From assembly GCA_963785915.1 (NCBI GenBank), contig CAWAWY010000005.1, positions 24,301-88,300 on the forward strand: a stretch of 64,000 bases of DNA, given 5' to 3'. Below the pieces are notes generated by a model, which saw only the letters and a program-made list of their open reading frames with translations, did no database searches and was not told the origin of the DNA. This DNA is from an uncultured Chitinophagaceae bacterium. GTDB taxonomy: Bacteria > Bacteroidota > Bacteroidia > Chitinophagales > Chitinophagaceae. A program made the position numbers and the translations under genes. Below are positions 3,833-60,612 of the stretch, piece by piece (position 1 is the stretch's first letter; the number at the start of each line of letters is the position of its first letter).

Positions 3833-3853
3833 GACAATTGTTGGATGCGTATA

Positions 3854-18010: not shown

Positions 18011-18586
18011 ATGAAAAAACATCAATCCGGAGTTATAGTAAGCTTAGTCTTACTTTTATTTTTGAGTTGCCGCGGGGAAGAAAAAACTGAATCTTTTTTT
18101 CCCGTCAATTCAATTATCCAGGGTCAACTAAACGATATAGATACTTCTTTATATTCAATCATTAAAATAACCTACATAGATAGCATTCGAAGTGACACTG
18201 ACTACATAAGGCGGGAAGAGATTCGGGGCCTTGCCGCCGATTTTCTTAGCATTCCGGAATTGACCAAGAAAAAATATACAGAAGAAAACATTGCCGGACC
18301 ACTTGACGGTGTATCCACTTTTACTTACAGGCCTATTCATCCTGATAAAGAAGAGTTAAAGCAAGTTGACCTGATCATTGATCCCTCACTGGAAACAGAA
18401 GGAAAAAGCCAGATAACAACAATTATCTTAGAAAAAATGTATTCAAATAAAGATAGTTTGGTAGAAAAAAAACTCCTTTGGCAAACTGACAAAAGCTTCC
18501 AGGTGACTACGTTGAAACAATTACCCGGGCAACCGGAAGTCTATTCTTCTTACAAGGTAATTTGGAGCGGAGTGAATGACGAATGA
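18011..18586 (+). CDS. lipoprotein, unknown function
   Basis: 191 aa with a lipobox (LLFLSCRGE). Its stop overlaps the uvrC start by 4 nt. Confidence 0.4.
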   Translation: MKKHQSGVIVSLVLLLFLSCRGEEKTESFFPVNSIIQGQLNDIDTSLYSIIKITYIDSIRSDTDYIRREEIRGLAADFLSIPELTKKKYTEENIAGPLDGVSTFTYRPIHPDKEELKQVDLIIDPSLETEGKSQITTIILEKMYSNKDSLVEKKLLWQTDKSFQVTTLKQLPGQPEVYSSYKVIWSGVNDE

Positions 18587-21647: not shown

Positions 21648-21652
21648 TTCAC

Positions 21653-23181: not shown

Positions 23182-23276
23182 GACGATTTATGGTTTTAAT
23201 TTTTAAGTAATGGTGACTTTTCAAAAATCACAGGATTCGGATTTTAAAAAACGAACTTATTATCCCGTTAGTTAAT

Positions 23277-38569: not shown

Positions 38570-39905
38570 TTATAACTTTTGTTTTCGCAGATTCTTAGTT
38601 GCAAAATAAATTAATAAGAAAGCTATGAATACAGAGATCCCAATCACTGCATACATTGGGTCGGAAATAGCTATCACCGTTCCGACAAATATATAGGCTA
38701 TAATAAAAATGACCGGCAGTAATGGGTACAACTTCATGGAATAAATGCCTGTGCCATCAAGATGTTTTGTTCTTTTCCTTAAAATAAAAATAGTGGCGGC
38801 CGATGTCGCCATACCGATAGAATCGAGAAAAATAGTGAAGCTTAATATCTCGTTGAATTTTTTGGCAAAAAACAATACTACTACACAAATAGCGGCAAAG
38901 ACCGTAAGGCTTACCGTCAAAACATCTTTCTTTTCATCTTTCTTTTTAAAAGCTTTTGGCAATATCCCGTCTTCACTCATGGCATACATCACTCTTGGAT
39001 TGCTCAGCAACAAAACATTTACATAAGCGAGCACTGCAATGAACAGCAAAATAGATGAGGCATACCTGCCGGTTGTTCCAAACATTTTTTCCGCAATGAT
39101 CGCGGCGATGCCCGATGTTTCTTTCAGTTCATTAAAACCAATCACTTTGTAATAAGCGTAACTCACGACGAGATAAAGAGAAACGATAACCAGAATACCG
39201 ATAAAGATCCCTCTTGGAATATTTTTTTGTGGATTCTCTATCTCTTCGCCAAAATTGATGGTCTGCTGGTAACCACCATAGGTAAAAGATGTTGCTTTCA
39301 AAGCAATGCCAAAAGAGAGAAGAATAGCGCCAAAACTTTTCGTATCCAGGTCAACAGCAGCTTGCGGAGCAGTATTATAAAATTGAGGAAAGAAAATAGA
39401 GGCGATCAATATCAACAACATTCCGATTTTGATCAGCATTAAGAACATTCTGCGTTTTCGAACTCATCCGTAAGCCCATCAGGTTTACACCATAAAAAAT
39501 TACGATCGCCGACATGGCGATCATCGCTTTTACAAAATCGGTTGTTCCTGACGTAAAAATGAGCGGCGTTATATACTCACTCCCGATCAATGCAACGCCG
39601 GACAATGAAGCTGCATTGGATATAAGTATGATGCAATTGATCGCAAAAGCAATAGAAGGATGATAGGCATAAGAAAATATCTTATAGTAGCCCCCCGTCA
39701 CAGGATACCGGCTTCCGATCTCTGCATAGGTCAATGCTCCGCAAAAAGCGACCAGCCCTCCGACTATCCAGGCTGTAAAAAAAAGTGTAGGCGTTAAAGC
39801 GGCTTGTGCGGCGTCTTTCGAGGTCCTGAAAATTCCCATCCCGATCACCAGTCCGATCACGATCATGGTCAGGGAAAACAGGCCGAGCTTATTTTTCGAT
39901 GCCAT
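38570..39905 (-). pseudogene. APC family amino acid permease, frameshifted (or sequencing error)
   Basis: ORF 39375-39905 and ORF 38570-39448 join as ..SSKTQNVL|MLIKIGMLLIL.. with a 1-nt change near 39438-39443. Confidence 0.75.
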
Positions 39906-42928: not shown

Positions 42929-43040
42929 ATTTCTTCAAAAATTCCTTTGTATCTATAACATCATCTACCGCACCTGAGTTTGAACACATGTTAAAAACTA
43001 TTCCTGAATAAAAAAATTCTCTGCCTACATTTGCTTCGAT

Positions 43041-43250
43041 TTGGTTTCCGATTTAAATATCGGGATGAAAAGGGAAACCGGTGTACTTGCCTGCCGAAGG
43101 TACGGAGTCCGGTGCTATCCCCGTAGCTGTAAGGGGCCTCCCCAAACCCCTCCGAAGGAGGGGCTTACGAGAAGCTTCAATCTTCGCCACTGTTAAGAAC
43201 AACGGGAAGGCGTTGAAGTAAACCCCAAGCCAGAAGACCTGCCACATCAA
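43041..43250 (+). promoter_or_regulatory. cobalamin (B12) riboswitch
   Basis: Conserved blocks aaagggaaaccggtg, agtccggtgctatccccgtagctgtaa, gccactg, gggaaggcg and the B12 box agccagaagacctgcc. Lies upstream of a TonB-dependent receptor. Confidence 0.8.
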
Positions 43251-43380
43251 TTAACAACATTCAGCTTTCGGGTGAAAGGCATGAAATGTAAAAGTCGAAG
43301 GACGTTTATATTTCTTTCACGCCGTTGTTGGTGTCCCCACCGACAACTCTTACACGAAAGCAGTCACTAAAAATTTTTCA

Positions 43381-45384
43381 ATGATGAAAAAGAAAATTTT
43401 TATTGTGGCTGCTCTGATCTTCAGCAGCCAATTGCACGGACAAATTTTTCCGTCAAAAAAAAATGACTCAGTAGTTGTGATCATTGATGATTTCCCTTAT
43501 CTGGCCAGGCAGCTTGACAGGGTGGTGGTTACCACCAATAAATATCCAAAAAAGCAAAGCCAGACTGGAAAAGTAACAACAGTAATTGATAAAGAAATGC
43601 TGGAGAAAATGGGAGGACGAACGGTTGGGGAAATTTTGAATTCGGCTGCTGGAGTAACGATCAATGGTGCCAATAACGCTTTAGGCACAAACCAGCGTAT
43701 CAGCATCCGCGGCTCATCGGATGGAAATGTTTTGTTGCTCGTTGACGGCCTACCGGTAAATGACCCGTCAGTCATCAGTAATTATTTTGATCTGAATTTT
43801 GTCAATACTTCACAGATTGAGCGTATAGAAATCCTGAAAGGAGGTCAATCGACTTTATATGGCTCAGACGCGGTAAGCGGCGTGATTAATATCATTACAA
43901 AAAAGGCGGAAAGTAAAAAAATTGCGTCTACTGCTTCTTTAAGTTTTGGAAGCTATAATACGTTAAATGGCAGCGCAGGAATAAATGGCAATACAAAAGC
44001 AATCACCTACAATATATATACATCACATATTTCTTCAAAAGGCTTTTCTTCAGCATATGACTCTGCGGGGAATAAAAATTTTGATAAAGACAAATATCGT
44101 CAATATCTGCTGCAGGGAAATATCGGTGTAAAAATTTCAGATAAAGTGCTATGGAATATTTCAGGCAATTACAGTCGTTACAAAGCGGATGTAGATGCAG
44201 CCGCCTTTACGGATGATAAGGACTTCTTTATTCGAAATAAAAATTTTCAAGCGGCTTCAGGTTTGCAATGGAAACAGGCAAAAGGCCAGATGAATTTCAA
44301 CTACCAATTTAATTATGTACAGCGCTTTTATCTTGACGACTCAACTGACCTCGGATCATTTTCTTACTTTTCAAAAAGTACATACACTGGTCGCACACAT
44401 TTTGCAGAACTGTATGAAAATTTTCAATGGCATCATGTTTCATTGCTGGCAGGGATTGACTATCGTTTTTACAACAGCAACCAGGTTTATCATTCCATCA
44501 CTGCATTTGGTCCGTTTGATACGGAGCTAAATGATTCTGTAGCAAAAATGTGGCAGGTCAGTCCCTACGTTTCTTTGGTGTATAATGACCGGAAGGCAAA
44601 TATCGAAGCAGGAGCCCGCTTGAATCATCATAATGTATATGGTAACAATTCTACTTATACATTCAACCCGTCGTATTTAATTTATCAAAAAGTAAAACTG
44701 TTTGCAAACCTTTCCTCCGCGTTTAAAACGCCTTCCTTGTACCAGTTGTTTGATCCTTATAGCGGTAATAAAAACCTGGATCCTGAAAAAACAAATATAA
44801 CCGAGACCGGCGTTGAGGTATACCCGACAGGTATTATGCGATTGCGATTCACCGGCTTTTTCAGGAAGACAAAAAATGCGATACAATATATTATCGCCGA
44901 CCCGGTATTTTTCAATGGTCAATATCGAAACGTCAGCAACCAAAAAAATTCCGGGTTTGAATTTGAGTTGAATTATACCGGTGAAAAATGGAATATCAAC
45001 GCCAATTATACTTATACCAAAGGAAAGATCACTTCAGCTTATTCAGAAAGCGGCGATCATTTATCAAAAGACACAACGTATAATAACCTGTATCGTGTGC
45101 CCGCTCATGCTTTTAATATTTTCGCGGGCTACCAGGTGAATAAGGAATTTGGCCTCAGTTGCCTGCTCAGGTATACCGGTAAACGACAGGAACCCGTATA
45201 TGCTTCCGTACCAATACTGCTGGATGATTATATCGCCATTGATATCTCGGGTCACTATAGAATTAATCAGCATATAAGAATGTTCATTGATCTGAAAAAT
45301 ATCACCAACACAAAATACTTTGATATCCCCGGTTATAATTCAAAAAGATTCAACTGGAGTAGTGGGGTGAGTGTTAATTTTTAA
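43381..45384 (+). CDS. btuB: TonB-dependent vitamin B12 receptor
   Basis: 667 aa with a plug domain (IEILKGGQSTLYGSDAVSGVINI). Controlled by the riboswitch immediately upstream. Confidence 0.8.
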   Translation: MMKKKIFIVAALIFSSQLHGQIFPSKKNDSVVVIIDDFPYLARQLDRVVVTTNKYPKKQSQTGKVTTVIDKEMLEKMGGRTVGEILNSAAGVTINGANNALGTNQRISIRGSSDGNVLLLVDGLPVNDPSVISNYFDLNFVNTSQIERIEILKGGQSTLYGSDAVSGVINIITKKAESKKIASTASLSFGSYNTLNGSAGINGNTKAITYNIYTSHISSKGFSSAYDSAGNKNFDKDKYRQYLLQGNIGVKISDKVLWNISGNYSRYKADVDAAAFTDDKDFFIRNKNFQAASGLQWKQAKGQMNFNYQFNYVQRFYLDDSTDLGSFSYFSKSTYTGRTHFAELYENFQWHHVSLLAGIDYRFYNSNQVYHSITAFGPFDTELNDSVAKMWQVSPYVSLVYNDRKANIEAGARLNHHNVYGNNSTYTFNPSYLIYQKVKLFANLSSAFKTPSLYQLFDPYSGNKNLDPEKTNITETGVEVYPTGIMRLRFTGFFRKTKNAIQYIIADPVFFNGQYRNVSNQKNSGFEFELNYTGEKWNINANYTYTKGKITSAYSESGDHLSKDTTYNNLYRVPAHAFNIFAGYQVNKEFGLSCLLRYTGKRQEPVYASVPILLDDYIAIDISGHYRINQHIRMFIDLKNITNTKYFDIPGYNSKRFNWSSGVSVNF

Positions 45385-45395
45385 ATTTGATTAGT

Positions 45396-45611
45396 ATGTG
45401 CCGGCACGAAATAAAATCCTGCGCTCGATGTAATAAGACATTCGAATGTAAACCCGGCTCTATCACACAATGCCAATGCTTCTTAGTACAATTAACAATA
45501 GAACAAAGAGCCTACCTGGAGCAACGCTATAGTGACTGTCTCTGCATAAACTGTTTGGCTCAACTGCAGGAAGAATTTGAATTGTTCAAGGAAAAATATA
45601 TTTATCAATAA
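45396..45611 (+). CDS. cysteine-rich CWC family protein
   Basis: MCRHEIKSCARCNKTFECKPGSITQCQCF...CLCINCL. Small Cys-rich protein immediately after btuB. Confidence 0.6.
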   Translation: MCRHEIKSCARCNKTFECKPGSITQCQCFLVQLTIEQRAYLEQRYSDCLCINCLAQLQEEFELFKEKYIYQ

Positions 45612-46479: not shown

Positions 46480-46551
46480 GGCCTCGTAGTACAATGGATA
46501 GTATAAGAGCCTCCGAAGCTCCAGATGCAGGTTCGATTCCCGCCGAGGCTA
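46480..46551 (+). tRNA. tRNA-Arg (anticodon CCG)
   Basis: Manual cloverleaf: acceptor ggcctcg/cgaggct, D stem gtac/gtat, anticodon loop ctCCGaa, T loop ttcgatt, discriminator A. CCA is not encoded. Confidence 0.85.
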
Positions 46552-46573
46552 CACAATTTTTACGTTAAAGATT

Positions 46574-47419
46574 TTAATCTTTTAATTGATTCAGTTTTTC
46601 ATCAGTCATCCGCTCCGCCATCTTCCATTTCCGGATTTTAGTGAACGGCAATTTCAACAAATTTCCAATGGTGAGCTCATTTTCCTCCGGATATGACGGA
46701 ACACCTGTCACAACCTGGAGCTGGTGGATATTTAATCTTATCGTTTTATGCATCCTGTCCCAAAAAGAAAAAATTATAGAATAGTTACTATCTGTCTCAT
46801 TTTTTACCATAGAATGATGAATACCATGCATTCTTGGGGTGACGATAATTTTATTCATCCATTTTTCAATAACAAAAGGAAGTTTTATATTGCTGTGATG
46901 AAATTGAGTAGCGGCTTCAAACACTATTTCATAAATAAGGACCATCAGCGGAGAAGCGCCGATTAACACGATAGCCACCCCCCGAAACAAAACGGATCCG
47001 ATCATTTCACCAAAATGAAAACGAAAAGCAGTTGTTACGTCAAGGTCGAGATCGGTATGATGAACCAGGTGAAACCGCCAAAGGACAGGTAGCTTATGTA
47101 GCAGGATATGCCAGAGATAATTGCTGTAATCCAGTAATAAAAAAGTAATAACAGATCTTATAAGAACTGGCGTCTCAATTAAATAATTAAGCCCAAATTG
47201 CCATTGCTGATTTTTCACTGCCAGCCAGACCATGGCGGGAATAAGCAACAGTCTTAATAAAACAAATGCAGGAATAGAAACAATAAAATTGATGATGATC
47301 CTTTTGAAACGCTTCTGCACTCTTTTTCTTAATTGGAATTTTGTTTCAAGAAAAAAAAGGAGAATAAATATTCCAACAAGTATGGGAGCTCCAAACTGGT
47401 CGAAGATGTTTTTAATCAT
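46574..47419 (-). CDS. fatty acid hydroxylase / sterol desaturase family membrane protein
   Basis: 281 aa with histidine boxes HILLH, HLVHH and HGIHH. Confidence 0.75.
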   Translation of the reverse strand: MIKNIFDQFGAPILVGIFILLFFLETKFQLRKRVQKRFKRIIINFIVSIPAFVLLRLLLIPAMVWLAVKNQQWQFGLNYLIETPVLIRSVITFLLLDYSNYLWHILLHKLPVLWRFHLVHHTDLDLDVTTAFRFHFGEMIGSVLFRGVAIVLIGASPLMVLIYEIVFEAATQFHHSNIKLPFVIEKWMNKIIVTPRMHGIHHSMVKNETDSNYSIIFSFWDRMHKTIRLNIHQLQVVTGVPSYPEENELTIGNLLKLPFTKIRKWKMAERMTDEKLNQLKD

Positions 47420-47496
47420 CGATTCTTAATTTTTACATTCTTCCCGTTTCATTGAAGCCGACATCATACCTTAACTCCAATTCACTCCAGGTTTCA

Positions 47497-48935
47497 TCAG
47501 CCAAAAATTTTATATGCTATTTTCAAAAGCTTTTCCAGGTTGCTGTTTAATTTTTTTTCCCTTTGTTTAGAAATAATGCGCTGATTTATTCTTGACGCTA
47601 CAGGATAGGGATAGACTTTATTAAACAGGGCATTGACAGATAATCCTTCGGAATTGGCCAATATCAATTCCTGGATAAGTTCTCCCGCATGAGGCGCTAC
47701 CATTGTACCGCCAAGTATCTTTTTCTTTTTTATAAAAGCTCCCGGGGGTGATGTATAAAATCATCTTTGCGTATTGATAATTATCTATAACGGCCCTGTC
47801 ATCCTTGTTAAAATCCTGTTCCAACCTTTTGTACGTAACATTCCTTTTGTTTAGTTGCTTTTCATTCATGCCAAACGTTGCCACTTCAGGATCCGTGAAA
47901 CTGACCCAGGACATATGATCGTTATTTAATTTTCTTTTAAATGGCGATAGAAAATTATTGATCAATATACGGGCATGGAACTCTGCAGCATGGGAAAAGA
48001 TAAGATCACCGGCCACATCGCCGCAAACATAGACGTTCTTATTACTCGTGCGCAGGTAGTTATTCACAGCTATTTTTTGCTCTTTGACTTCGATTTCTGC
48101 ATTCTCTAATTGCAGTGAGTCAAACTGCAATTCCCGGCCAATGCCAACGAAGACTGCATCGAAAGTTAAATTCCTGCTATCGGCATCCGTCATTTTTATT
48201 ACTGCTTCGTTTCCCGATTTGAAGCTCTCCACTCCGGCATTGAGCAGGAATTCGATCCCTTCCTTCTCCAGCCTTTGTAAAAGAACAGATGTTACTTCTG
48301 CGTCATCATGCTCAAGAATGTGGTTGCCCTGGTGTACAACAATTACTTTTCTTGCCCAGGCGGTTCAGGGCTTGTGCCGTTTCGATCCCGATAGGACCAC
48401 CACCAACCACTAAGATATTTTCAGGTAAATTGTCAATATAAAAAATATTGTCGTTGTCAAAATACTTCACCTGTTCAACACCCGGAACATTTAGCTTTCG
48501 TGGTGTAGAGCCTGTTGCAATTATAATATTTTTGCCCATGTATAACCTGCCATTTACTTCAACAACTTTCTTTCCTGCAAACCTTGCTGCGCCTAATGCA
48601 ACGTCTATCCCTCTTTGTGTTAGCCATTCTGTATTCTCATGCTTGCGGATAATTTCCTGTCTCTGGTAAACATAGTCAATAATTTTTTTTATATCTGCCC
48701 TTCCTTTTACATCCAGTCCAAATTCATTTGCCTTTTTGGCATCATGTACGATCCTTGAAACATGGATCAACGCTTTGCTCGGTACGCAACCATTATTCAA
48801 ACAGTCTCCGCCAATGTCTTTATCAGTTTTTTCGATCATTAAAACTTTGAATCCAAATTTATTCATGGTTAAACCGACACTTAGTCCGCCGGAGCCCGCA
48901 CCAATTACTATTATGTCGTATGTAGATATATTCAT
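47497..48935 (-). pseudogene. class-I pyridine nucleotide-disulfide oxidoreductase, 2 frameshifts
   Basis: Three ORF pieces. Contains GAGSGG, the redox disulfide CLNNGCVPSK and a C-terminal dimerisation domain. The frames join if one base is dropped from the T4 run at 48347-48350 and one from the A4 run at 47734-47737. Confidence 0.8.
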
Positions 48936-48972
48936 GATTATATGACCGCCGCGCCGGAAATCGTTTTGAATT

Positions 48973-49672
48973 TCACCTGATATCGTTATACCATTGATTT
49001 AATTTTGCAGGTGAAAAACCAAGTAAATAAAGACGTTTAATCACCATCCATTTTATTCTTGTCCTGAGAAAACCATCTTTGACATGCCTTCTTGCGTTGA
49101 CAATTAATTTTGGTTCTTTGACGAGGCAGACCTTATACCTGGCACGCATTCGAATTGAAAAATCATAGTCTTCCATGATCGGTATTTCTTTAAAGCCGTC
49201 CCAATTCATCAAAAATTTTTTTTCTCACAAAAATTCCATTATCGCCATAGAAAATTTTTCTTTCCGATTGCTCTCTTTTTCTTAATCCCAGATGCATGAT
49301 CTTTCCAAATTTTTTTATCTTTCTGCTATGCCTGTCAAAAACATTAAGGAAGCCGCCACCGTCACAACCATTTTCATAAATTTCCTGATTTATTGTTCTT
49401 AAGGCGCCGCAGGGCACATACATATCGGCATGAACAAAAAAAAGTATATCTCCTGTTGCCAATTTAGCTGCGGCGTTTAGTTGTTTAGCTCTGCCCTTTT
49501 CAGCCTGAATCACTTTGGCATATGAACTTGCCAGGTTTACCGTTCGGTCGTTGCTAAAACCATCACTGACAATGACCTCAAAATCGCCTTCCTCTTTCAG
49601 TTGGCAAAGTTGATGCAGCGTATTCTCAATGCAAGTTTCTTCGTTATAGGCAGGAATAATAACTGATATCAT
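48973..49672 (-). pseudogene. family 2 glycosyltransferase, 1 frameshift
   Basis: MISVIIPAYNEE...FVHADM...GDNGIFVRKKIFDELG|GFKEIPIMEDYDF. The junction lies near 49195-49200. Confidence 0.75.
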
Positions 49673-49695
49673 ATCAAACGATCTTTAGGATCATT

Positions 49696-50139
49696 TTAAT
49701 TTTTATTTCTTAATAACCCCGTCACTAAAAGACAAAACCCGGCAAGATTCAATAAAGCCCGCACGGCATGTGAATATTCCCATTGGCTGCGGAGTTTTTC
49801 CCACTCACCAGGTAATTGTGTCCAGTTGGATGTAGAGGTGTTAGCAGGAAACGTATAAAAGAAAAAGATAGCAAGGCTGATGCTAAAAAGCAACAAGGCG
49901 ACAAGCAAAAAGGGGAAAACAGGTCTCCTTTTCCTTTCGATAATTGTCCAGATCAAAGTCAGCAAAAGACCTCCGATCTCAAATATACCCAGCCATGACC
50001 AACCCCTGTAAATCTGTTGCACTGTCTGATAATCCTGCTTTGTTAAATGAATTTTTCCAGGTAACTCTAACAGGTGTGTCAGCAACGCACTTAATGTAAT
50101 TGTGACAAATAGTATAGTTATAAACCTGAAGATATTCAT
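49696..50139 (-). CDS. DUF1772-like 4-TM membrane protein
   Basis: 147 aa, intact, sitting between the two GT2 genes. Confidence 0.5.
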   Translation of the reverse strand: MNIFRFITILFVTITLSALLTHLLELPGKIHLTKQDYQTVQQIYRGWSWLGIFEIGGLLLTLIWTIIERKRRPVFPFLLVALLLFSISLAIFFFYTFPANTSTSNWTQLPGEWEKLRSQWEYSHAVRALLNLAGFCLLVTGLLRNKN

Positions 50140-50153
50140 ACTGGCTACAGCAT

Positions 50154-50851
50154 TTATAATTTATGACTTTTGACCAGTCTCCTATGCAATTGAATAACCG
50201 TTCCTGTGAATACCCCAGGTAATACAAAATCCAGATACGAAAAAAAATTGCCTGCATCCGGTAAACTCCATTATCTAAATATTTTCTTGCCGAAGTAATT
50301 ACAGTCCCATTCATTACTTTAAATTTTCCATATTTTTTGATGCGGTGAATGATTTCCTGGTCTTCCATCATCAGCAATTCTTCTCTGAAACCACCGCATT
50401 TTTCAAAAATATCTTTCGTAACAAACAGACTTTGATCACCAAACCGAATGCATTTACATTGAAGCGTGTGAACCAGCAATTGGCTTTTAAAAACCAATGA
50501 TCATAATCAAACGCAAGCCGGAAGCATCCGCTTTACAGCTCCCTCTTTATATGCTTTCAAAATCCGGCCTGGAAAACTTTCAGGAGGAATAGTATCGGCA
50601 TGTAAAAAATAGATGATCTCTTGTGTTGCAATGCACAGCTCCATAGTTCATTTGTACAGCCCGCCCTTTGTCGGCAAGAATTATTTTTACACCTTCCGTT
50701 TTAGCTAGTCCTGATCGTATTATCTTTGCTTCCTCCGTCAGCAATAATGATCTCTTTCACCAAATTTGCATTATCATATTTCCACAATCCTCTGAATGGT
50801 AGTTTTTAATATGCGATTCTTCATTGTATGTAGGAATGATAACACTGATCA
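50154..50851 (-). pseudogene. family 2 glycosyltransferase (paralogue of 48973-49672, TIGR04283-like by context), at least 7 frameshifts
   Basis: By frame-hopping: MISVIIPTYNEESHIK / TIQRIVEI / DNANLVKEIIIADGGSKDNTIR / LAKTEGVKIILADKGRAVQMNYGAVH / ATQEIIYFLHADTIPPESFPGRILKAYKEGAV / SGCFRLAFDYDHWFLKANCWFTRFN / RFGDQSLFV...YSQER / LIQLHRRLVKSHKL. Confidence 0.7.
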
Positions 50852-50852
50852 T

Positions 50853-51470
50853 GTTATGCTGCATTTATTGTCATTAAAAGTTCTGACAATCTATTCAGGT
50901 CATCTTCGTTATCAATATCAGATAATTCAGGAAGCAAGAAAATAGATAGCCTTCAGTCGTTCGCAAATGTTCAATGTTTGTCTTTAACACTTCCCCGAGT
51001 ACTCCAATTGATATTTTTAAAAAGTTCGCGTGTAAATTTTTCATAGCCAATAAATAATAACCTCCGTCTTTTGCAGGGCCGATTACTACATCAGATCTAT
51101 TCAGCTAAACATAAGCATTCATAATCAATGGCTGAATTTAATTCAGGCAATCAGTTCCTATAATTGCTACCTTTTCTATAGCCATTTCGAATACATCTGC
51201 AAACGCATTTTGCATTCTTTCACCCAGATCGTTTCCTGATTGAATTTGCTTTTTGTAATATTTTCGATCCCATATATCATTTCGGCACTAATGATCTTGA
51301 GTAAAAAACAATTTTATCAACCGAAAGATCTTTTGTTATCAGATATCGTGTGCCTCATCAAGTTGCTCGTAAACTGGATAGGCTAGCATCATGACCAAGT
51401 GTGGCGGCAAGTCTTGTTTTTACTTCTCCATGAATTAAATTCTTTGCAAAAATCAATAGCGCCTCTTTCA
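50853..51470 (-). pseudogene. DUF2064 (TIGR04282-like) transferase, many frameshifts
   Basis: Fragments MKEALLIFAKNLIHGEVKTRLAATLG, QSGNDLGERMQNAFADVF, VAIIGTDC, DVVIGPAKDGGYYLLAMKNL, ELFKNINWST and LPELSDIDNEDDL lie in alternating frames. The start overlaps the PNP stop (ATGA). Confidence 0.7.
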
Positions 51471-52286
51471 TCTTATATCCTTTATGGTTTCGTAAAATAA
51501 GTTTTGAAAGTTTTTCATCGGCTTTTGCTGCTATCGCAATAATCTCTTCAATATTTACCGGTTTCAGATTATCAGGATCACACTCATCTGTAATAACAGA
51601 AACTGCCGGCACAAGGCAGTTTTGCATGTGATTGGCTGCAATTACTTCAGGCACGGTTGACATTCCCACCATATCAGCACCGATAATTTTCAGATAACGA
51701 TATTCAGCTTTTGTTTCAAGATTGGGGCCATTTACCGCAGCATAAACACCTTTTTTTAACTCAATATTTAATTCCTTTGCCTTGCATTGCAACCAGGTCT
51801 TTTAATGGAGATCATAAGGTTCACTCATGTCAGGAAACCGCGGGCCTAACTCATCATAATTTTTTCCTGTTAATGGATTACCATACAAGTAAATTAATAT
51901 GATCATCAATCAACACCAAGTCACCCTTTTTAAAATTCAGATTAATGCCTCCGGCCGCATTGGATAAAAACAATTTTTGAATTCCCAACAACTTCATTAC
52001 CCGGATTGGAAATACAATTTGCTGCAGTGAATATCCTTCATAAGCATGAAACCGACCCTGCATCACGAGAACATTTTTCTGTTCGATTGTTCCATAGATC
52101 AAATTGCCCTTATGAAATTCTACAGTGGAAACGGGAAAGCCCGGAATTTCAGAATAAGGAGTTATTTTTTTTATTTCATACGTAGTTCAAAAAATGATTC
52201 AATCCTGTTCCCAAAACAATTCCGGTTTCGGCGTGGTTAATTCCTTTTGAAATCAAATATTCTTTTGCTTTTACTATTTGTTCCAT
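51467..52286 (-). pseudogene. purine nucleoside phosphorylase (PunA-type), several frameshifts
   Basis: Fragments [68 protein letters not shown] and AKELNIELKKGVYAAVNGPNLETKAEYRYLKIIGADMVGMSTVPEV. Confidence 0.75.
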
Positions 52287-52313
52287 AAAAAGATTAAAAG
52301 CAAGCAAGAGCAG

Positions 52314-53421
52314 CTATGCAATAGCTCCTCCGCAACTTGAGCCTGAACCGGCAGTGCATCCATAGCAATGTTGCCCGATAACGATCTCTCTTTTATCTAA
52401 TTCACAAGATCAAATTCACTGAAATGTTTTGCCCGGCTGTTTACTTTCAGTTCAAGCATTTGGTTAAAATCACAATCATATAAATAACCATCCCATCCAA
52501 TTGAAATTGTATTTCTGCACATCACATTTGCTGCCGCAGCAGGATTAAAAGCATTAAGCAGTTTTTCCATATACTTCTCATAATTACCGCTGGAAAGAAG
52601 TAATCAAGAAACCGGCTGATCGGCATGTTAGTAATCATGTAAAGATTGTTGAATTCAATCCCGAAATTTTTCAGCAGTTCTTTTTTATATTCTTTTTCCA
52701 GCAAAGCCTGCGATGTCGGCAAAAAAGCTCCCGCAGGATTATAAACCAAACTTAAGATCAAACCGGAATTTTCTTTTCCATAACCCACATCATTCAGCAT
52801 CTGCAATGCTTTTATGGAATGGTCAAATACGCCTTCGCCTCTTTGCCTGTCTGTTCTGTCCTTTGCGTATAAAAGGCAATGAAGAAATCACTTCAATATT
52901 ATTTTCTTTAAAAAATTCAGGAAGATCGTGAAAACGCTTATTTGATAAGAATGATCGTGAGGTTGCAGCGGTCAATGATGTGCCGATCCAGCTTTTTTAT
53001 TTCTTCAACAAACCAGCGAAATCGGGATTTAGCTCCGGTGCGCCGCCGGTAATATCAACAGTGGTAAAGGAGGATTTTTTTTCAGCACATCAAGGCACAA
53101 TTGCATCGTTTCTTTGGTCATGATCTCTTTGCGATCGGGCCCGGCATCTACATGGCAATGTTTGCATGTTTGATTGCACATTTTGCCAATGTTCACCTGG
53201 AATATTTCGATGGCAGATGGCTTTAGCGGAAACAAGCCGATCGTTTCCAATTTTTGCTGAAAAGGAACTAATGTAAAATTATTCGTTTGTCCATGCTCAA
53301 TAATTTCAACCTGTTCATGAACGTCAGCAAGAATATGTTGCTGGTGATGAAAAGACGTCCCTTCTCTCCATTGAGAAACAGAGGAAAATCCGTTTAATTT
53401 TTCCCGGTAACGATTTATCAT
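52314..53421 (-). pseudogene. arsS: ArsS-type radical SAM / Cys-rich domain protein, several frameshifts
   Basis: Fragments QVNIGKMCNQTCKHCHVDAGPDRKEIM, LSLVYNPAGAFLPTSQALLEKEYK, ITNMPISRF, MCRNTISIGWDGYLYDCDFNQ and LDKREIVIGQHCYGCTAGSGSSCGGAIA, followed by the stop. Confidence 0.8.
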
Positions 53422-53608
53422 CTTTCAATTCCATTTGTTCTACGGAGCAATTGCTCAATAGAATTGTTTTAGTACAAGTGTACGACGCAATGAAGGCCAA
53501 ATGGCAGCAATGCAGCTAAGTATATAATAAAAAAACTCACTGCCATAGAACTGATCGAAAAAAAGAAAATTTCTTTGACCTGAGTTCCCCTAAGGTGGAA
53601 ACAAAATC

Positions 53609-53943
53609 CTACATTGCAATTTCTTTCACCTTATTCATCATCTGCACGCCGTGCACCAATGAAGCGCCACCTCTTATGGCAGCCGCTACATGAATGCTTC
53701 CATCATCTGTGCTTCACTCCATCCTTTTTCAAAAGCATCATCACTGTAGGCATCAATGCAATAAGGACATTGAACAGCATGTGCCACAGCCAGAGCAATC
53801 AACGATTTTTCTTTTGCTGTAAGAGCACTTTCTTTAAAAACTTCATTGTACCATGAAAAAAATTTATCGCCTAATTCAGCCTGGAACTCGCTTACATTTC
53901 CGAATTTTTTCGAGTCGTCGCAGAAGTAATAGTGATTAGCCAT
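53609..53943 (-). pseudogene. AhpD/carboxymuconolactone decarboxylase-like protein (ArsS-associated peroxidase-like family by context), 1 frameshift
   Basis: MANHYYFC...LTAKEKSLIALAVAHAVQCPYCIDAY...EAF|HVAAAIRGGASLVHG. The junction lies near 53690-53695. Confidence 0.7.
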
Positions 53944-53949
53944 ATCTGT

Positions 53950-54523
53950 TTATTTAATTAATGGTACAAAAAAAGAACCAATCTTTCCAGAGAATGAGCC
54001 TGAGAAGGCGAGCGTGAAAAATATTGTGCAATAAACATCCCAAGTTCCCACTCGCAAATGGCTAATATTTATCACTGAAAAGCATGCTGATGCTTTTCTT
54101 TGCATATAGTGCAGAGGAACAATCAACCCTACAACGATTCCGTATACGAGATGGCCGATCAATGAACCAAGCATCATCAGAATTTTATCTCCGGCCATCG
54201 CTGGTATTGGCATCATCATTCCAATAAGCCACATCATGACTTGAGCAAACACAAAAACAACAAAACCGAACAACGCACCTTTCCAGAATTTGCTGTTGAT
54301 ATTTACTTTAGAATTGAACCAATAAACATACACCAGGGCAAAAATTGTCCCTATCATGAAATGCATGATATATCCCACTAATAGCAACTCCCATCATACC
54401 TGATAACATGGCTGCAGGGTTCATCTTAGGAAGACCCATTATTGGAGCCATTAAACCAACTCCTGTCATGACTGCGGTGGCTATTATACCGGCTAATACT
54501 GCCCTTCCGAATTTGTTTTCCAT
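53950..54523 (-). pseudogene. small polytopic membrane protein, unknown family, 1 frameshift
   Basis: ORF 54308-54523 and ORF 53950-54387 join as ..MLSGMMGVAI|GYIMHFMIGTIFALVY.. near 54375-54385. Confidence 0.55.
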
Positions 54524-54556
54524 AAATTTTTTTTTGATGAAAAATAGCTTTATGTA

Positions 54557-54586
54557 TTAGTCGCACATTTCATTCCACCCTGACAA
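54557..54586 (-). promoter_or_regulatory. candidate ECF-type promoter, copy 1
   Basis: The minus strand reads TTGTCAGG-N12-GTGCGACTAA, ending 34 nt before the membrane-protein start. Both boxes are identical in copy 2. Confidence 0.5.
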
Positions 54587-54650
54587 GCAGGGGTGACTTT
54601 TAATAATTTGAAAAAGGAAATAAAGGATAAACTGAAATTAGTTATCACAC

Positions 54651-54908
54651 TTAGAATTCCGGAACCTTCGAGATTATGTCCTTTTCAAGTTTCCCGGTAT
54701 CCACAATCTCTGAAAAATTGTTCATGTGGGTATTCAGCAATTTATTGATCAGCTTAGTCTGCTTCCTGTAGTTTCTGCAACCTGAACACATGGAAAGATG
54801 GAAATGCAACTGGAGCGTCTTTATGACGCCTAATGAAACATGTTCTTTCATTTCCAAAAGCTCTGTCGCCTTTATGCAAGACAACATCATTACATTCATC
54901 AGGTTCAT
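54651..54908 (-). CDS. short zinc-binding (HxxxCxxC) anti-sigma factor without TM segment
   Basis: 85 aa with the HLSMCSGC motif. Lies directly downstream of the ECF sigma gene. Confidence 0.55.
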   Translation of the reverse strand: MNLMNVMMLSCIKATELLEMKEHVSLGVIKTLQLHFHLSMCSGCRNYRKQTKLINKLLNTHMNNFSEIVDTGKLEKDIISKVPEF

Positions 54909-54950
54909 ATAAAATATTTAAGTATTCTGAAATCCCGATCACCGATTAGT

Positions 54951-54980
54951 TTAGTCGCACTATTACCTGGTTCCTGACAA
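54951..54980 (-). promoter_or_regulatory. candidate ECF-type promoter, copy 2
   Basis: The minus strand reads TTGTCAGG-N12-GTGCGACTAA, ending 43 nt before the anti-sigma start, in the sigma/anti-sigma spacer. Confidence 0.5.
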
Positions 54981-54996
54981 ATGATCCGATCACTTA

Positions 54997-55563
54997 TTAT
55001 TTAAACCAATTTACTTCCAGGCAATTTCTTAATTGCAATTTTGCCCGGTGTATGATCTGCCAGAAATTGGCACTTGTAATTTCCAAATCAGAGCAGATGA
55101 TCCTGGTGTCATGGTTTTCCAAAAATTTTAATTTAACTGCTAACGACCACTTTTCAGGAAGCTTATCAAAACATCCGTTCAGGGTCTTTGAAAATTCGGG
55201 ATCATCCAACAGCTCTTTTTCACCAGGCCATTCTTTCGGCCGGTACTCAGGTTTCCATCGGTAATTATTATCAAACAAGATTTCGATAAACCCGGAAGAT
55301 GGCTCCTCGCTTTTTTTATATTTTTCCCGGAAATAGTCTGCAATTTTATGTTTAAGGATCGAAAATAGCCATGTTCCTGGCGAGCTTTTGCCCTTGAAGT
55401 TTTTGTATGATTGACAGGCGGAGAGAAATGTTTCCTGCACCAGATCTTCTGCTATTTCTTTTTGATTCACTTTGGCAAGCGTATAGCGAAACATATCCCC
55501 GGTGTAGCTTTTCACCCATTCGATAATATCATTTGCAGAAGAAGACATCGTAGTTCCAGGCAA
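54997..55563 (-). CDS. ECF-type RNA polymerase sigma-70 factor
   Basis: 188 aa with region 2 (EDLVQETFLSA, WLFSILKHKIADYFR) and region 4 (ANFWQIIHRAKLQLRNCL). Confidence 0.8.
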   Translation of the reverse strand: MPGTTMSSSANDIIEWVKSYTGDMFRYTLAKVNQKEIAEDLVQETFLSACQSYKNFKGKSSPGTWLFSILKHKIADYFREKYKKSEEPSSGFIEILFDNNYRWKPEYRPKEWPGEKELLDDPEFSKTLNGCFDKLPEKWSLAVKLKFLENHDTRIICSDLEITSANFWQIIHRAKLQLRNCLEVNWFK

Positions 55564-56904: not shown

Positions 56905-57984
56905 TCAGCATATCCGTGGCAACTGTTCGCCCGACAACATATCCACTACTCTTGTACCGCCGACTGCTGTCTTCATCATTACCATGCCGGGATGCCCGGT
57001 AACTATTTCCCCGATCACTGTTGATTCTTTTCCCAATGGGTGCGAACGCATCGCCTGCAAAACTTTTTTACAATTTTCTGCAGGCACGATCACGATCATC
57101 TTTCCTTCGTTGGCGACATATAGTGGATCAAGTCCTAAGATCTCGCAGGCGCCTTTCACTTCTTCACTGATCGGAATTTTTGTTTCTTCCAAATGAACTC
57201 CTAATCCGGATGACTCTGCGATCTCGGTCATCACGCTCGTAATGCCCCCTCTTGTTGCATCCCTCAACATGTGAATGTCTTTACTTGTATTCAGGATAGT
57301 CTGCACCAATCCGTTCAATGGAGCAGTATCGCTTTTTATTTCTGATTCAAATTCCAAATTTTCACGAACCGACATAATAGCAATACCATGAACAGCGATC
57401 GGGCCATTAACGATTATTTGGTCACCCGCTTTTACATTGGATGGATGAATGTTCACATCATCATCAATTATTCCCACCCCTGATGTGTTGATATAGATCT
57501 GGTCGCCTTTGCCCCTGTCAACCACTTTAGTATCTCCGGTTACTAATAATACGCCTGCTTTTTTTGCCGCGTTTTGCATGGACAATATCACCTTCCAGAA
57601 ATCTTCCATTGAGAAACCTTCCTCGATGATAAATCCAACAGACAAATACAACGGCTTTGCGCCGCACATGGAAATATCATTCACTGTTCCATTGATGGCG
57701 AGTTCACCGATATCACCACCGGGGAAAAATATCGGGTTGACGACATAGGAATCTGTACTGAATGCGAACCTTGCTCCGTTTTGTTCAAATATTGCTCCGT
57801 CGTGTAATGGTTCCAAAAACTCGTTGCCGAATTGTGGCAGCAGCATCTTTTTAATAAGATTATGCGTGAGCTTGCCGCCACTGCCATGGGCCAATGTTAC
57901 CTCCTTGTAATTAGTAATTGGCAAAGGACAGGAACCCAATAAAGTTTCAATATCAATTCCGTTATTTTTTTCTTCAATGATCAT
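56905..57984 (-). CDS. hypE: hydrogenase maturation protein HypE
   Basis: 359 aa with a PurM-like fold and the canonical C-terminal PRIC. Confidence 0.9.
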   Translation of the reverse strand: MIIEEKNNGIDIETLLGSCPLPITNYKEVTLAHGSGGKLTHNLIKKMLLPQFGNEFLEPLHDGAIFEQNGARFAFSTDSYVVNPIFFPGGDIGELAINGTVNDISMCGAKPLYLSVGFIIEEGFSMEDFWKVILSMQNAAKKAGVLLVTGDTKVVDRGKGDQIYINTSGVGIIDDDVNIHPSNVKAGDQIIVNGPIAVHGIAIMSVRENLEFESEIKSDTAPLNGLVQTILNTSKDIHMLRDATRGGITSVMTEIAESSGLGVHLEETKIPISEEVKGACEILGLDPLYVANEGKMIVIVPAENCKKVLQAMRSHPLGKESTVIGEIVTGHPGMVMMKTAVGGTRVVDMLSGEQLPRIC

Positions 57985-58125
57985 ATTTTATGTTTTACAC
58001 CCCTCGCTGCAACCGCAACGACTGCTCAGAGTAAACTGCGACGCTTGTCTACATGAACAGAACCCTGAACGGAGCGTCGCAACGAACGATGCCATGAAAA
58101 ACTTCGGCTGGCACCATAAAAAAAT

Positions 58126-58752
58126 TTACACAACATCTTCTTCGCCCATCGCAATATGAACGAGATCCCAAAGTATATGCACCATCGTCGCATGCACTTC
58201 CTGGATGCGATGAATGCTATACGACGGGACAATGAAACAATGATCGGCCACTTCAGGAAAACGTCCACCGTCTTTGCCGGCAAATGCTATCGTCATCAAA
58301 CCCTTGTCACGGGCAGCTTCCAGCGCATAGATCATGTTCGGCGATTTGCCGCTGGTGCTGAACGCCATCAGCATATCACCTCCTTTTCCATGCAGGTTGA
58401 TCTGATTCACATACACCCTTGTAAAATCAAGATCATTACCGATAGCGGTCATCGTTGCAATATCCGTCATCAACGGAACGACAGGAAACGCTCTTCGCTT
58501 TTCAATAATGGGATGATTAAACTCGACGGCAATATGCAACGCATCACAAAGACTGCCGCCATTGCCCATGACGAATAATTTTTTTCCTTCCTCAAACCGC
58601 CCGGCCATCTCCAGGCACATAGCTTCAGTTTCCTCAGCGTACCTGGAAAAAAATTTCTCTTTCATCTCCATGCTTTCATGGCATTTCCGCATGATCTTCT
58701 CTTTGAAACTTTCTGAAGCCTTTGTCAAAATTTCTTCCATAAAAAAATTCAT
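58126..58752 (-). CDS. SIS domain protein (GmhA/phosphoheptose isomerase-like)
   Basis: 208 aa containing [11 protein letters not shown] and STSGKSPN. Its start overlaps the hypD stop (ATGA). Confidence 0.75.
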
Positions 58753-59864
58753 TCAACTGTGGCTAATTTATTTTTTTCTAAATGTCGCCCGTAAGCATAA
58801 TATGCTGCACAGGCACCTTCGGCAGAAACCATCGTTGCACCCAACGGATGTTCCGGCGTACATTCTTTGCCAAAAGCAGGACAATGATGCGGTTTTTTTA
58901 TTCCTTTCAAAATTTGTCCGCTGATACAGATTGATGGCTCTTTGGTATCAATTTCCGATACTTCAAAAATCCTTTCCGCATCGAAATCACGAAATTCAAA
59001 TCTTAATTTATAACCGCTCTTTGGTATTGACCCTACACCTCTCCATTTGCGATCGCTTACTTCAAAAACTTTATTTACCAGGTCTTGCGCAGTTTTATTT
59101 CCCGGCTCATCGACCACTCTTGAATATTGATTCTCCACTTCAGCTCTACCATGTTCGAGTTGCTTTACCGTCATCAATACGCCATGCAACAGATCCATTG
59201 GTTCAAAACCAGTGATAACGATAGGCACTTTGAATCTTTCGCAAATCGGTTTGTATTCGTGATAACCCATCACCGTGCAAACATGTCCCGGTCCTAAAAA
59301 TCCCTGGACACGATTTTGCGGCGATTGAAGAATAGAAGCCATCGCAGGTGGTACCAATACATGTGAAACAAGAATAGAAAAGTTTTTTATGTTTTGTTCT
59401 TTCGCAAGCCATACGCTCATGGCATTTGCCGGTGCGGTAGTTTCAAAGCCGATCGCAAAGAAGACAACTTTTTTATCCGGATTTGCTTTTGCAATTTTTA
59501 AACAATCAATGGGTGAATAAACAACTCTTATATCAGCGCCTCTCGATTTCAACACCAGCAGATCGCTTTGCGAACCCGGCACACGAAGCATATCACCGAA
59601 AGAACAAAAGATAACATCCTTGTGGCTGGCAATAGCGTGAGCTTTGTCAATCATCTCAAGCGATGTAACACATACGGGACAACCGGGGCCATGCACCAAT
59701 TCAATTTGCTCCGGCAGCATTCTGTCCAGACCATATTTCACAATGGAATGTGTTTGTCCGCCGCACACTTCCATGATGACCCATGGCTTTGTGACGATCC
59801 GTTCTATCTCACGCACTATTTTTTGAGCCAGTTCTTCGTCGCGATATTCATCAAGATATTTCAT
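58749..59864 (-). CDS. hypD: hydrogenase maturation protein HypD
   Basis: Start set at MKYLDEYRD. Motifs [14 protein letters not shown] and GFETTAP are present. A GGAGG lies 5 nt upstream of the start. Confidence 0.9.
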
Positions 59865-60150
59865 CATTTCCTCCTTTGTGTTTTGCAATTGTTTCTTCAA
59901 CAAACTGAGGAATATTTAATTCATCTAATTGTTCCAGGTCCTCCAACGCCTTATAGGTTCTTTGTGCTTCGGCTTCATCCACTTTGTTTAATGCAAAGCC
60001 CACGTGCACCAATACATAGTCTCCCGGCTGCACATCCGGAGTATATTGCAAACAAACCTGTTTGACGATACCGCCAAAATTTGTTTTGCCCATTTTCACG
60101 CCATCCGTTTCGCTTATCTCAAGCACTTTCCCCGGTATTGCCAGGCACAT
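59851..60150 (-). CDS. hypC: hydrogenase maturation chaperone HypC
   Basis: Start set at [12 protein letters not shown] (essential Cys2). GGAGGTGATC lies immediately upstream. Confidence 0.85.
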
Positions 60151-60346
60151 GATCACCTCCTTTTTTATGATTTATCATTTTACTGATGGGCACACCATCG
60201 CATAACAGTATCTTATCGCCAATATCCGCATCAGGCAATAACAACAATGGAACAACTTTCAGTACACCATTAATATTTACTTTACCCATGCGTTGCCCAT
60301 TGTCTGTAAAAACTTTTATTATGTCTGCATAAACAAGATTCATCAC
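60119..60346 (-). CDS. HypC/HupF-like paralogue lacking the N-terminal cysteine
   Basis: 75 aa that aligns by eye to HypC (GQRMGKVNINGVLKVVPLLLLPDADIGDKILL versus [32 protein letters not shown]). It begins MMNLVYADI rather than MCL. Confidence 0.55.
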   Translation of the reverse strand: MMNLVYADIIKVFTDNGQRMGKVNINGVLKVVPLLLLPDADIGDKILLCDGVPISKMINHKKGGDHVPGNTGESA

Positions 60347-60561
60347 CCGTCGCTATTATTTTTCTTATTAAATAGATCCATGGCAATCGGGATCGTGCTA
60401 AGGATCCCTAATACCAATAGCGGTATGCCGATTGCTTTACGGCGCTTAGCCGATAATTTATTTGCCAGCAACAAGCCTGCGCCGACACCGATCGCTGCCC
60501 GGGTCCCTGCTATGAATGCGATCTCAGATACTGAAACATTTTCTAATTCTTTTCCTTCCAT
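60343..60561 (-). CDS. small two-TM membrane protein
   Basis: 72 aa. Its stop overlaps the start of the hypC-like gene. No family recognised. Confidence 0.4.
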   Translation of the reverse strand: MEGKELENVSVSEIAFIAGTRAAIGVGAGLLLANKLSAKRRKAIGIPLLVLGILSTIPIAMDLFNKKNNSDG

Positions 60562-60612
60562 AGCGATTCGTTTTATTGATTTATAATCTCATGTACTTTT
60601 TTCACAACTCAG

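Follow-up and report, generated by a model that had tools for sequence, protein, structure and literature searches.

The 64-kb stretch analysed here (64,000 nucleotides of contig CAWAWY010000005.1, from an uncultured Chitinophagaceae bacterium; hereafter, the window) contains twelve consecutive minus-strand genes, running from position 55563 to 46574, that include a gene for an ArsS-family enzyme of the radical S-adenosylmethionine (SAM) type. In order, these genes encode an extracytoplasmic function (ECF)-type sigma factor, a small anti-sigma factor, a DUF6789 membrane protein, an AhpD-like protein, ArsS, a purine nucleoside phosphorylase (PNP), a DUF2064 protein, a first family 2 glycosyltransferase (GT2), a DUF1772-like membrane protein, a second GT2, a flavin adenine dinucleotide (FAD)-dependent oxidoreductase and a fatty-acid-hydroxylase-type enzyme. 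A first-pass annotation had given the same twelve genes in this order, and the positions of the open reading frames (ORFs) bear it out. Only four of the genes (sigma, anti-sigma, DUF1772-like and hydroxylase) are uninterrupted ORFs; the other eight carry frameshifts, about which that annotation was silent, and are broken into two to ten reading-frame pieces apiece. For the proteins of the cluster, we stitched the ORF pieces and then used frameshift-aware protein-to-DNA alignment against intact orthologues; hidden Markov model (HMM) scores are judged against NCBI's curated cut-offs.

We compared the cluster with related loci (numbered with the prefix L). When one genome was scanned for each species, at least 599 ArsS-encoding stretches came up, of which the best 80, almost all from Bacteroidota, were kept; the ORFs of these 80 genome loci were clustered and their recurring neighbours annotated within 10-kb flanks. 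Metagenome loci were drawn from a scan with the hydroxylase, bringing the related loci to 147 in total. ArsS is widespread in Bacteroidota. The closest ArsS proteins among the best 80 (76% identity) come from Ferruginibacter, Parafilimonas and other Chitinophagaceae metagenome-assembled genomes. In the metagenome scan, the best match reaches 79%. Exact-protein look-ups for the hydroxylase and for HypE, encoded beside the cluster, gave no match.

The ArsS-family gene (52314-53421, minus strand, as for every cluster feature below) yields a frame-corrected protein that scores 454.4 bits on TIGR04167 (cut-off 300), with an alignment spanning model positions 2-303 of 303, in agreement with the first-pass assignment of the radical SAM enzyme. 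We found both the radical SAM CxxxCxxC motif, CNQTCKHC, and the motif CYGCTAGSGSSCGG. The C-terminal Cys- (or selenocysteine-) rich motif HCYGCTAGSGSSCGG is likewise found, with Cys in place of selenocysteine. The protein is 78% identical to the L001 orthologue, and the PDB holds no structure of an ArsS. Its frameshifts, near 53063, 53022, 52949, 52870, 52598 and 52404, agree within a few bases across three reference proteins. In the window, the ArsS ORF starts at ATG 53421 and is extended by 21 codons at its N terminus, and the spacer between the AhpD-like gene and the ArsS-homologous region (53609-53355) measures about 190-250 nt, compared with 12-50 nt in most relatives; nothing was identified in it.

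The other core genes surround ArsS. Upstream, the AhpD-like CxxC protein (53609-53943; one frameshift near 53693) scores 167.3 bits on TIGR04169 (cut-off 120) and is 84% identical to its orthologues. Downstream, a trimeric-type PNP of the PNP/MTAP superfamily (51470-52307) scores 335 bits on NF006054 (cut-off 218) and only 94 bits on the MTAP (methylthioadenosine phosphorylase) model; within this gene, an 8-bp inverted repeat, AAACTGCC...GGCAGTTT (51600-51622), lies at a compensating pair of frameshifts near 51623 and 51607. The DUF2064 gene (50854-51471), whose product has a CofC/MobA-like nucleotide-diphospho-sugar transferase fold, scored 122 bits on TIGR04282 with a crude stitch and 180.3 bits (cut-off 134) once apparent stops were read as pairs of indels. 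Pfam reports a DUF2064 match and a weak CofC match for this gene, and an orthologue matches PDB entry 3CGX, a 'putative nucleotide-diphospho-sugar transferase', at 2.8e-31. Both GT2 genes belong to TIGR04283 (cut-off 182): the first (50154-50864) scores 222.3 bits and is 69% identical to the L012 orthologue, and the second (48973-49672; one frameshift near 49198) scores 185.7 bits and shares 57-59% identity with the copies of L048, L083 and L084. The scores for PNP, TIGR04282 and the first GT2 were computed after indel-only correction.

All four models that the first-pass annotation had put forward as a check (TIGR04167, TIGR04169, TIGR04282 and TIGR04283) thus score above cut-off on frame-corrected proteins. 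Its statement that AhpD-like, DUF2064 and GT2 proteins are catalogued neighbours of ArsS was also correct, as NCBIfam names these families as associated with arsenosugar biosynthesis. Its family calls are confirmed overall by HMMs, but the anti-sigma, DUF1772 and oxidoreductase models stay below cut-off; the motifs it quoted (CNQTCKHCHV, DCDFNQ, HCYGCTAGSGSSCGG and CLNNGCVPSK) are all present, but they are spread over different reading frames.

The far end of the cluster encodes two further enzymes. The first (47497-48935; frameshifts near 48362 and 47722) is a class-I FAD-dependent pyridine-nucleotide disulfide oxidoreductase with the motif CLNNGC; it is related to Lpd, MerA and GR but reaches no specific cut-off, its best model being NF004991 (399 bits; cut-off 620). 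Orthologues with 57-67% identity occur in L003, L006, L008, L016, L083, L084, L096, L100, L102, L103 and L105, in every case within an ArsS cluster, and a match in L048 has only 30% identity. The second (46574-47419; intact, 281 amino acids) is a membrane di-iron enzyme of the FA_hydroxylase superfamily (PF04116, 89 bits) that matches the OlsE model weakly (54.8 bits; cut-off 475). Where contigs are long enough to judge, all of its homologues with at least 60% identity lie in or beside ArsS clusters, mostly at the cluster end. Because relatives carry both genes there, in genomes (hydroxylase, 11 of the 80 loci; oxidoreductase, at least 5 of the 80) and additionally in about ten metagenome loci, we consider the two to be genuine recurring members of this lineage's cluster. 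Whether they co-occur with ArsS had been posed as a question by the first-pass annotation; they are conserved members of the Chitinophagaceae-type ArsS cluster.

The cluster also encodes two four-helix membrane proteins. The DUF6789 protein (53950-54523; PF20587, 41.5 bits; frameshift near 54385, C-terminus uncertain) is 69% identical to its L001 orthologue, which is placed between sigma and anti-sigma. The second (49696-50139; intact) has a weak DUF1772/Anthrone_oxy match (PF08592, 23.4 bits, under the gathering score of 27.3); with no homologue in the 147 related loci, it is specific to the window. In several relatives, namely L003 (15653-17743), L082, L089, L093, L097, L098 and L100, a membrane protein of about 110 amino acids and a 357-amino-acid FMN_red-like protein (PF03358, 27.5 bits) follow the oxidoreductase or GT2 and precede the hydroxylase. 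The window has neither, and its oxidoreductase and hydroxylase genes are 78 nt apart.

We found that most of these genes recur around ArsS in other genomes. In the 80 genome loci, an AhpD-like gene lies directly upstream of ArsS in at least 60, TIGR04282 is present in 42, TIGR04283 in 32 and PNP in 25, so that the synteny check suggested for the ArsS partners supports their association. In 30 loci, usually directly after ArsS, there is a methyltransferase gene whose product reaches 552 bits on NF038099, the model named 'arsenosugar biosynthesis arsenite methyltransferase ArsM'; DUF547 (18 loci), the rhodanese NF045521 (14) and a PlsC-like acyltransferase (6) recur as well. The order AhpD-ArsS-(ArsM)-PNP-TIGR04282-GT2-oxidoreductase-...-hydroxylase is seen in L003, L006, L010, L012, L016, L089, L096 and L100. 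In L003 the genes run AhpD, ArsS, ArsM, PNP, TIGR04282, GT2, oxidoreductase, small membrane protein, FMN-reductase-like protein and hydroxylase. In L001, sigma, DUF6789 and anti-sigma lie upstream of AhpD, ArsS and ArsM, with PNP farther on. Partial versions without ArsM are found in L006, L010, L012, L014 and L016, the last two of which also lack PNP. The window therefore shares with Chitinophagaceae-like genomes and metagenomes a core of AhpD-like protein, ArsS, PNP, DUF2064, GT2, FAD oxidoreductase and fatty-acid hydroxylase. A few related metagenome loci have defects of their own: in L085 (4876-5420, 7272-7583) ArsS is down to about 104 codons and sigma is split over two frames, the second GT2 is split in L083 (5858-6552) and L084 (3302-3996), and the small membrane protein is split in L096 (9626-9944).

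At its upstream end, the cluster begins with two intact regulatory genes. The ECF-type sigma-70 factor (54997-55563; 188 amino acids) has regions 2 and 4 and scores 72.9 bits on TIGR02937 (cut-off 42.9); no model of a specific ECF subgroup reaches its cut-off, the best being TIGR02943 at 132 bits. It is 66% identical, with no frameshift, to the sigma factor of L001. The adjoining anti-sigma protein (54651-54908; 85 amino acids) carries an H-x3-C-x2-C motif of the zinc-anti-sigma type, HLSMCSGC, scores 46.9 bits on NF052368 (cut-off 50), shares 60% identity with its orthologues in L001 and L004 and is apparently soluble, its sequence showing no membrane segment. The pair is restricted to a few near relatives (L001, L004 and L085).

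An ECF-promoter-like sequence, TGTCAGG-N15-CGACTAA, occurs twice as an exact match within the cluster: upstream of the anti-sigma gene (54951-54979) and upstream of the DUF6789 gene (54557-54585), which runs into the AhpD-like gene. These are the only matches in the window at up to two mismatches, where 0.28 would be expected by chance; no copy precedes the window's sigma gene. Exact copies are also present in L001 (three copies), L004 (directly upstream of the AhpD-like gene), L082 and L085, compared with a chance expectation of about 0.01 in roughly 2 Mb of loci, estimated from the 14 specified bases. One-mismatch copies occur in L003, L004 and L017, and every copy in the relatives lies on the cluster strand. 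A scan for Sigma-70 promoters and terminators was uninformative, since shuffled sequence gave more hits. Because the promoter-like motif recurs in this cluster and in four related ones, we consider the sigma/anti-sigma pair to be probably tied to the cluster. As regards the co-occurrence with ArsS that the first-pass annotation had raised, the link is this shared motif, and the pair itself is found in only a few near relatives. The form of the motif, that of an ECF promoter, and the HxxxCxxC of the small anti-sigma together suggest a thiol-reactive switch resembling SigR/RsrA.

The main correction to the first-pass annotation concerns the broken reading frames of the cluster. Alignment to three orthologues per gene revealed about 33 one-nucleotide frameshifts (20 net +1, 13 net -1) in eight genes between 54385 and 47722. 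Their density is bell-shaped, with a peak of about 15 per kb near 51.2 kb and zero at either end: we counted none in sigma or anti-sigma, one each in DUF6789 and AhpD-like, six in ArsS, seven in PNP, 9-10 in TIGR04282 (the densest spot), 6-7 in the first GT2, one in the second GT2, two in the oxidoreductase and none in the hydroxylase. The DUF1772-like gene, for which there is no orthologue to align, is an intact ORF and also counts none. The first alignment contained 6-7 in-frame stops, which might have been taken as evidence of decay; re-alignment with stops penalised turned every one of them into a pair of indels, and read in this way the sequence again matches its orthologues clearly. We also considered, and rejected, recoding of these apparent stops as selenocysteine, as TAA, TAG and TGA are mixed and the ArsS motif has Cys.

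Elsewhere in the window, four genes are split, each appearing as a pair of neighbouring ORFs that hold complementary halves of its domains: uvrC (18583-20380, plus strand), gldM (21653-23181, minus strand), a DUF255/YyaL thioredoxin-epimerase gene (25893-27741, minus strand) and an amino-acid permease gene (38570-39905, minus strand). This background, about 0.07 frameshifts per kb, suggests an indel-prone assembly. Within the one 6.7-kb stretch of the cluster, frameshifts are about 70 times denser than along the contig. The density of homopolymers in the cluster resembles that of the rest of the window, and homopolymer context does not discriminate between the explanations for the frameshifts.

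Two explanations deserve serious weight. We think it probable, judging from the sequence, that the frameshifts are sequencing or assembly errors in a poorly supported stretch. Alternatively, the genes could be real pseudogenes, recently inactivated in a lineage that lost arsM or meets no arsenic, with decay having begun in the ArsS-PNP-DUF2064-GT2 core. This second explanation would fit the confinement of the ~33 frameshifts to eight cluster genes while the FNT transporter, hypE, hypD, MarC and TonB receptor genes are intact, the absence of arsM from the 64 kb, the position of most indels outside long homopolymers, and the defects in other loci (ArsS of about 104 codons in L085, split GT2 in L083 and L084). 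We nevertheless hold it to be rather unlikely, because genuine decay leaves several substitutions per indel and the usual bacterial ratio is about ten. As no close relative was available for comparison at the nucleotide level, substitutions were assessed by conserved columns and mean identity. At columns conserved in at least 95% of sequences, there was no substitution in ArsS (121 columns) or PNP (90 columns), 211 together, and the other three families tested had one apiece at 17-43 such columns. ArsS and PNP carry 13 indels in 1.85 kb, and even a 1:1 ratio of substitutions to indels would, by our estimate, give about 3 hits at the 211 sites, and the usual bacterial ratio many more.

Several further features argue against decay. 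By mean identity the corrected proteins are not divergence outliers (ArsS ranks 9th of 21, PNP 1st of 11 and GT2 4th of 14), matching their relatives as well as intact orthologues match one another. Every gene is full length, with no larger deletion and no unavoidable nonsense codon; +1 and -1 events are about equally frequent (20 and 13), without deletion bias; and the density declines smoothly from a centre, where a dead operon would be affected evenly. The housekeeping genes uvrC and gldM are split too, which points to sequence quality. In our judgement, a locally poor consensus, of the kind that a long-read assembly may contain where strains are mixed or depth is low, fits these data better than pseudogene decay, and the organism probably has an intact cluster. 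The broken frames therefore call for caution before they are read as gene loss.

The absence of arsenic genes from view had led the first-pass annotation to regard the substrate as open. Its statement that no such genes lie in the window holds for the 64 kb as far as tblastn and family scans reached, and a few ORFs of the window went unscanned or had no family match. The conclusion drawn from it is not supported: because the enzyme scores fully as an ArsS equivalog and clusters of the same architecture carry a dedicated ArsM, arsenic is still the likeliest substrate. ArsM is linked to ArsS in 30 of the 80 loci, including L001 and L003, which are among the clusters most similar to that of the window and carry ArsM between ArsS and PNP. 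The cyanobacterial ArsS adenosylates dimethylarsenite supplied by ArsM to give 5'-deoxy-5'-dimethylarsinoyl-adenosine (PMC13598754); this chemistry is also given in a preprint (bioRxiv 10.1101/2022.09.23.509062), which cites Xue et al. 2019. The absence of arsM from 64 kb says nothing about the rest of the genome, where the gene is presumably located.

We also considered a reading in which the clusters lacking arsM (the window, L002, L006, L010, L012, L014 and L016) encode an ArsS-like enzyme that adenosylates a non-arsenic nucleophile, leading to a 5-deoxyribosyl glycolipid. Such a reading would account for a window in which no ars gene was found, for the several similar clusters with no arsM within 10 kb, and for thiol-redox and lipid-type partners that fall outside the described cyanobacterial pathway. 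It is improbable given how far the protein exceeds the cut-off of the ArsS equivalog model, with 454 bits, and given the dedicated ArsM of the 30 linked loci, L001 and L003 with their shared architecture among them; moreover, with a view limited to 10-kb flanks, arsM may lie elsewhere in those genomes. Weakest of all, to the point that we give it almost no credence, is a real burst of indels from a process targeted to the cluster: the sharply localised, bell-shaped, indel-only pattern is unlike ordinary mutation, but no reverse transcriptase, repeats or transposase were seen in the region, an error of assembly is the simpler explanation of such a pattern, and we know of no bacterial mechanism for targeted indel generation.

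Together, these results lead us to favour, with reasonable but not high confidence, the interpretation that the window carries a Chitinophagaceae-type ArsS cluster as catalogued for arsenosugar biosynthesis, that its transcription is ECF-driven and that its frameshifts are artefactual. Several observations weigh against this interpretation. A tblastn search of the whole 64 kb with ArsM gave no match, and neither ArsC nor Acr3/ArsB, ArsR or ArsH turned up when most of the larger ORFs beyond the cluster were scanned with Pfam and NCBIfam. By tblastn, the sigma factor is present in only 2 and the anti-sigma in only 3 of the 147 related loci. To our knowledge, no arsenosugar has been reported from Bacteroidota, and we found no experimental paper on the roles of the PNP, DUF2064, GT2, AhpD-like, oxidoreductase or hydroxylase proteins, for which fold and neighbourhood are the guide. 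With respect to the frameshifts, most lie outside long homopolymers, and errors in 70-fold excess at one place would have to have some particular cause, for example low coverage or strain mixing; the case for artefact is built on the indel-only pattern and its shape.

On the favoured interpretation, a reaction order can be proposed from the conserved partners. ArsS would add the 5'-deoxyadenosyl group of SAM to dimethylarsenite provided by an ArsM encoded elsewhere in the genome. The PNP/MTAP-type phosphorylase may then remove adenine, yielding 5-deoxy-5-arsinoyl-ribose-1-phosphate, and the CofC/MobA-like DUF2064 protein could activate or transfer the resulting sugar phosphate. The TIGR04283 GT2 enzymes would transfer the sugar onto an acceptor. 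This may be a lipid, because a membrane enzyme of the fatty-acid-hydroxylase type travels with the cluster; this enzyme, together with the acyltransferase of other loci, may indicate that the final product is a lipid. A thiol/disulfide relay made up of the AhpD-like CxxC protein and the Lpd-like flavoprotein might maintain the arsenical in its trivalent state or otherwise handle it. The ECF sigma factor, held by its zinc-anti-sigma-type partner, would drive the TGTCAGG-N15-CGACTAA promoters and hence at least DUF6789-AhpD, and probably the downstream genes too; the inducing signal could plausibly be thiol-reactive stress such as arsenite. Taken as a whole, the proposal that the cluster encodes the post-ArsS steps by which heterotrophic soil Bacteroidota would make an arsenosugar lipid, with induction by an ECF switch that senses thiols or arsenite, is a tentative one that we regard as doubtful in its full form.

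In the literature that we found, ArsS is the only enzyme shown biochemically, catalysing the first committed step to arsenosugars; we found no report of the enzymes for adenine removal, for assembly of the glycoside or for the arsenosugar lipids, and our search on post-ArsS enzymes or Bacteroidota arsenosugars returned nothing relevant. The recurring PNP-DUF2064-GT2 trio with its redox and lipid-type partners thus supplies a concrete and testable reaction order, and intact clusters exist in cultured relatives, for example Pedobacter, Daejeonella, Flavobacterium turcicum, Kordia, Aequorivita and Fulvivirga. If true, regulation by the sigma/anti-sigma pair through its motif would bring organoarsenical metabolism under a kind of control that is new for it. 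NCBIfam already names the families of the core for arsenosugar biosynthesis, and the window is an ordinary member or variant of this catalogued group; what it adds is arsM presumably in trans, a second GT2, the FAD oxidoreductase, the hydroxylase and control by an ECF/zinc-anti-sigma pair with a defined motif. Both the regulation and the post-ArsS steps are testable hypotheses that would not surprise a specialist.

The cluster's surroundings set its boundaries. At its downstream end, a convergent tRNA-Arg(CCG) gene (46480-46552, plus strand; ARAGORN and Rfam) serves as a boundary marker outside the system. We considered a genomic island at this tRNA and rejected it: the 3' end of the tRNA is not repeated elsewhere and there is no integrase, so there is no sign of an integrated island. 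The opposite flank holds genes for an FNT-family transporter and for a small membrane protein resembling YgaP, as well as a hydrogenase-maturation (hyp) operon. The transporter was rejected as a cluster member, as it has no homologue near ArsS in any related locus. The adjoining [NiFe]-hydrogenase maturation operon (56905-62943, minus strand) includes hypE (476 bits), hypD (516 bits) and, between the two, a GmhA-like gene with a SIS domain (58126-58752); beyond the hyp genes lie a short ORF (59851-60171) and a 776-amino-acid ORF (60613-62943).

Farther away, a cobalamin riboswitch (RF00174, 100.8 bits; 43025-43260, plus strand) lies directly upstream of a TonB-dependent receptor gene (43381-45384), whose best matches are B12-receptor models and which is followed by a gene for a Cys-rich CWC protein (45387-45611). 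A second ECF-like sigma gene (Sigma70_r4_2; 15949-16491, plus strand), unrelated to the cluster, precedes two ORFs without a family match (16682-17923 and 18011-18586). The window also contains the gliding/type IX secretion genes gldB and gldL-gldM-gldN (7290-8327, 20640-24104) and a MoxR/BatA-type operon (985-4855), a complement consistent with a free-living, Chitinophagaceae-like member of the Bacteroidota as the source.

Parts of the proposed pathway resemble steps of known systems. As in the methylthioadenosine (MTA) phosphorylase step of methionine salvage, a PNP/MTAP-superfamily gene adjoins that for an enzyme making a 5'-substituted 5'-deoxyadenosine, and phosphorolysis would yield adenine and a 5-substituted ribose-1-phosphate; unlike MTA phosphorylase, however, the window's protein scores as a 6-oxopurine-type PNP (335 bits, compared with 94 bits on the MTAP model). 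The AhpD-Lpd relay of mycobacteria likewise pairs an AhpD-fold CxxC protein with an Lpd-related class-I FAD disulfide oxidoreductase, but genes for AhpC or for a lipoyl carrier are absent from the cluster, only some ArsS clusters show the pairing, and the function proposed for it here is drawn by analogy. With SigR-RsrA of Streptomyces coelicolor the locus shares a small, apparently soluble HxxxCxxC anti-sigma beside an ECF sigma factor and a repeated ECF-like bipartite motif, although the window's pair was compared by generic models only, and its anti-sigma scores 46.9 bits against a cut-off of 50.

The closest comparisons are with arsenosugar systems themselves. The arsM-arsS genes of Synechocystis sp. 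PCC 6803 were reportedly described as arsenosugar genes by Xue et al. in 2019 and by Cheng and co-workers in 2021, the latter work being among the references of PMC12159101. The window's ArsS belongs to the same equivalog family, TIGR04167, with the same radical SAM and C-terminal Cys-rich motifs, and ArsM adjoins ArsS in many Bacteroidota relatives, as it does in the cyanobacterium. In contrast, arsM is not in cis in the window, whose host is a heterotrophic Bacteroidota and not a phototroph, and the cluster adds PNP, DUF2064, two GT2 enzymes, the AhpD-like protein, the Lpd-like flavoprotein, the hydroxylase, two membrane proteins and the ECF sigma/anti-sigma pair. Compared with the NCBIfam set for arsenosugar biosynthesis (TIGR04167, TIGR04169, TIGR04282, TIGR04283, the ArsM family NF038099 and the rhodanese NF045521), the window is without ArsM and the rhodanese and has the oxidoreductase, FA_hydroxylase, DUF6789, DUF1772-like and ECF/anti-sigma genes as extras; it nonetheless encodes four of the six families above cut-off, and its gene order is the commonest one in the 80 genomes.

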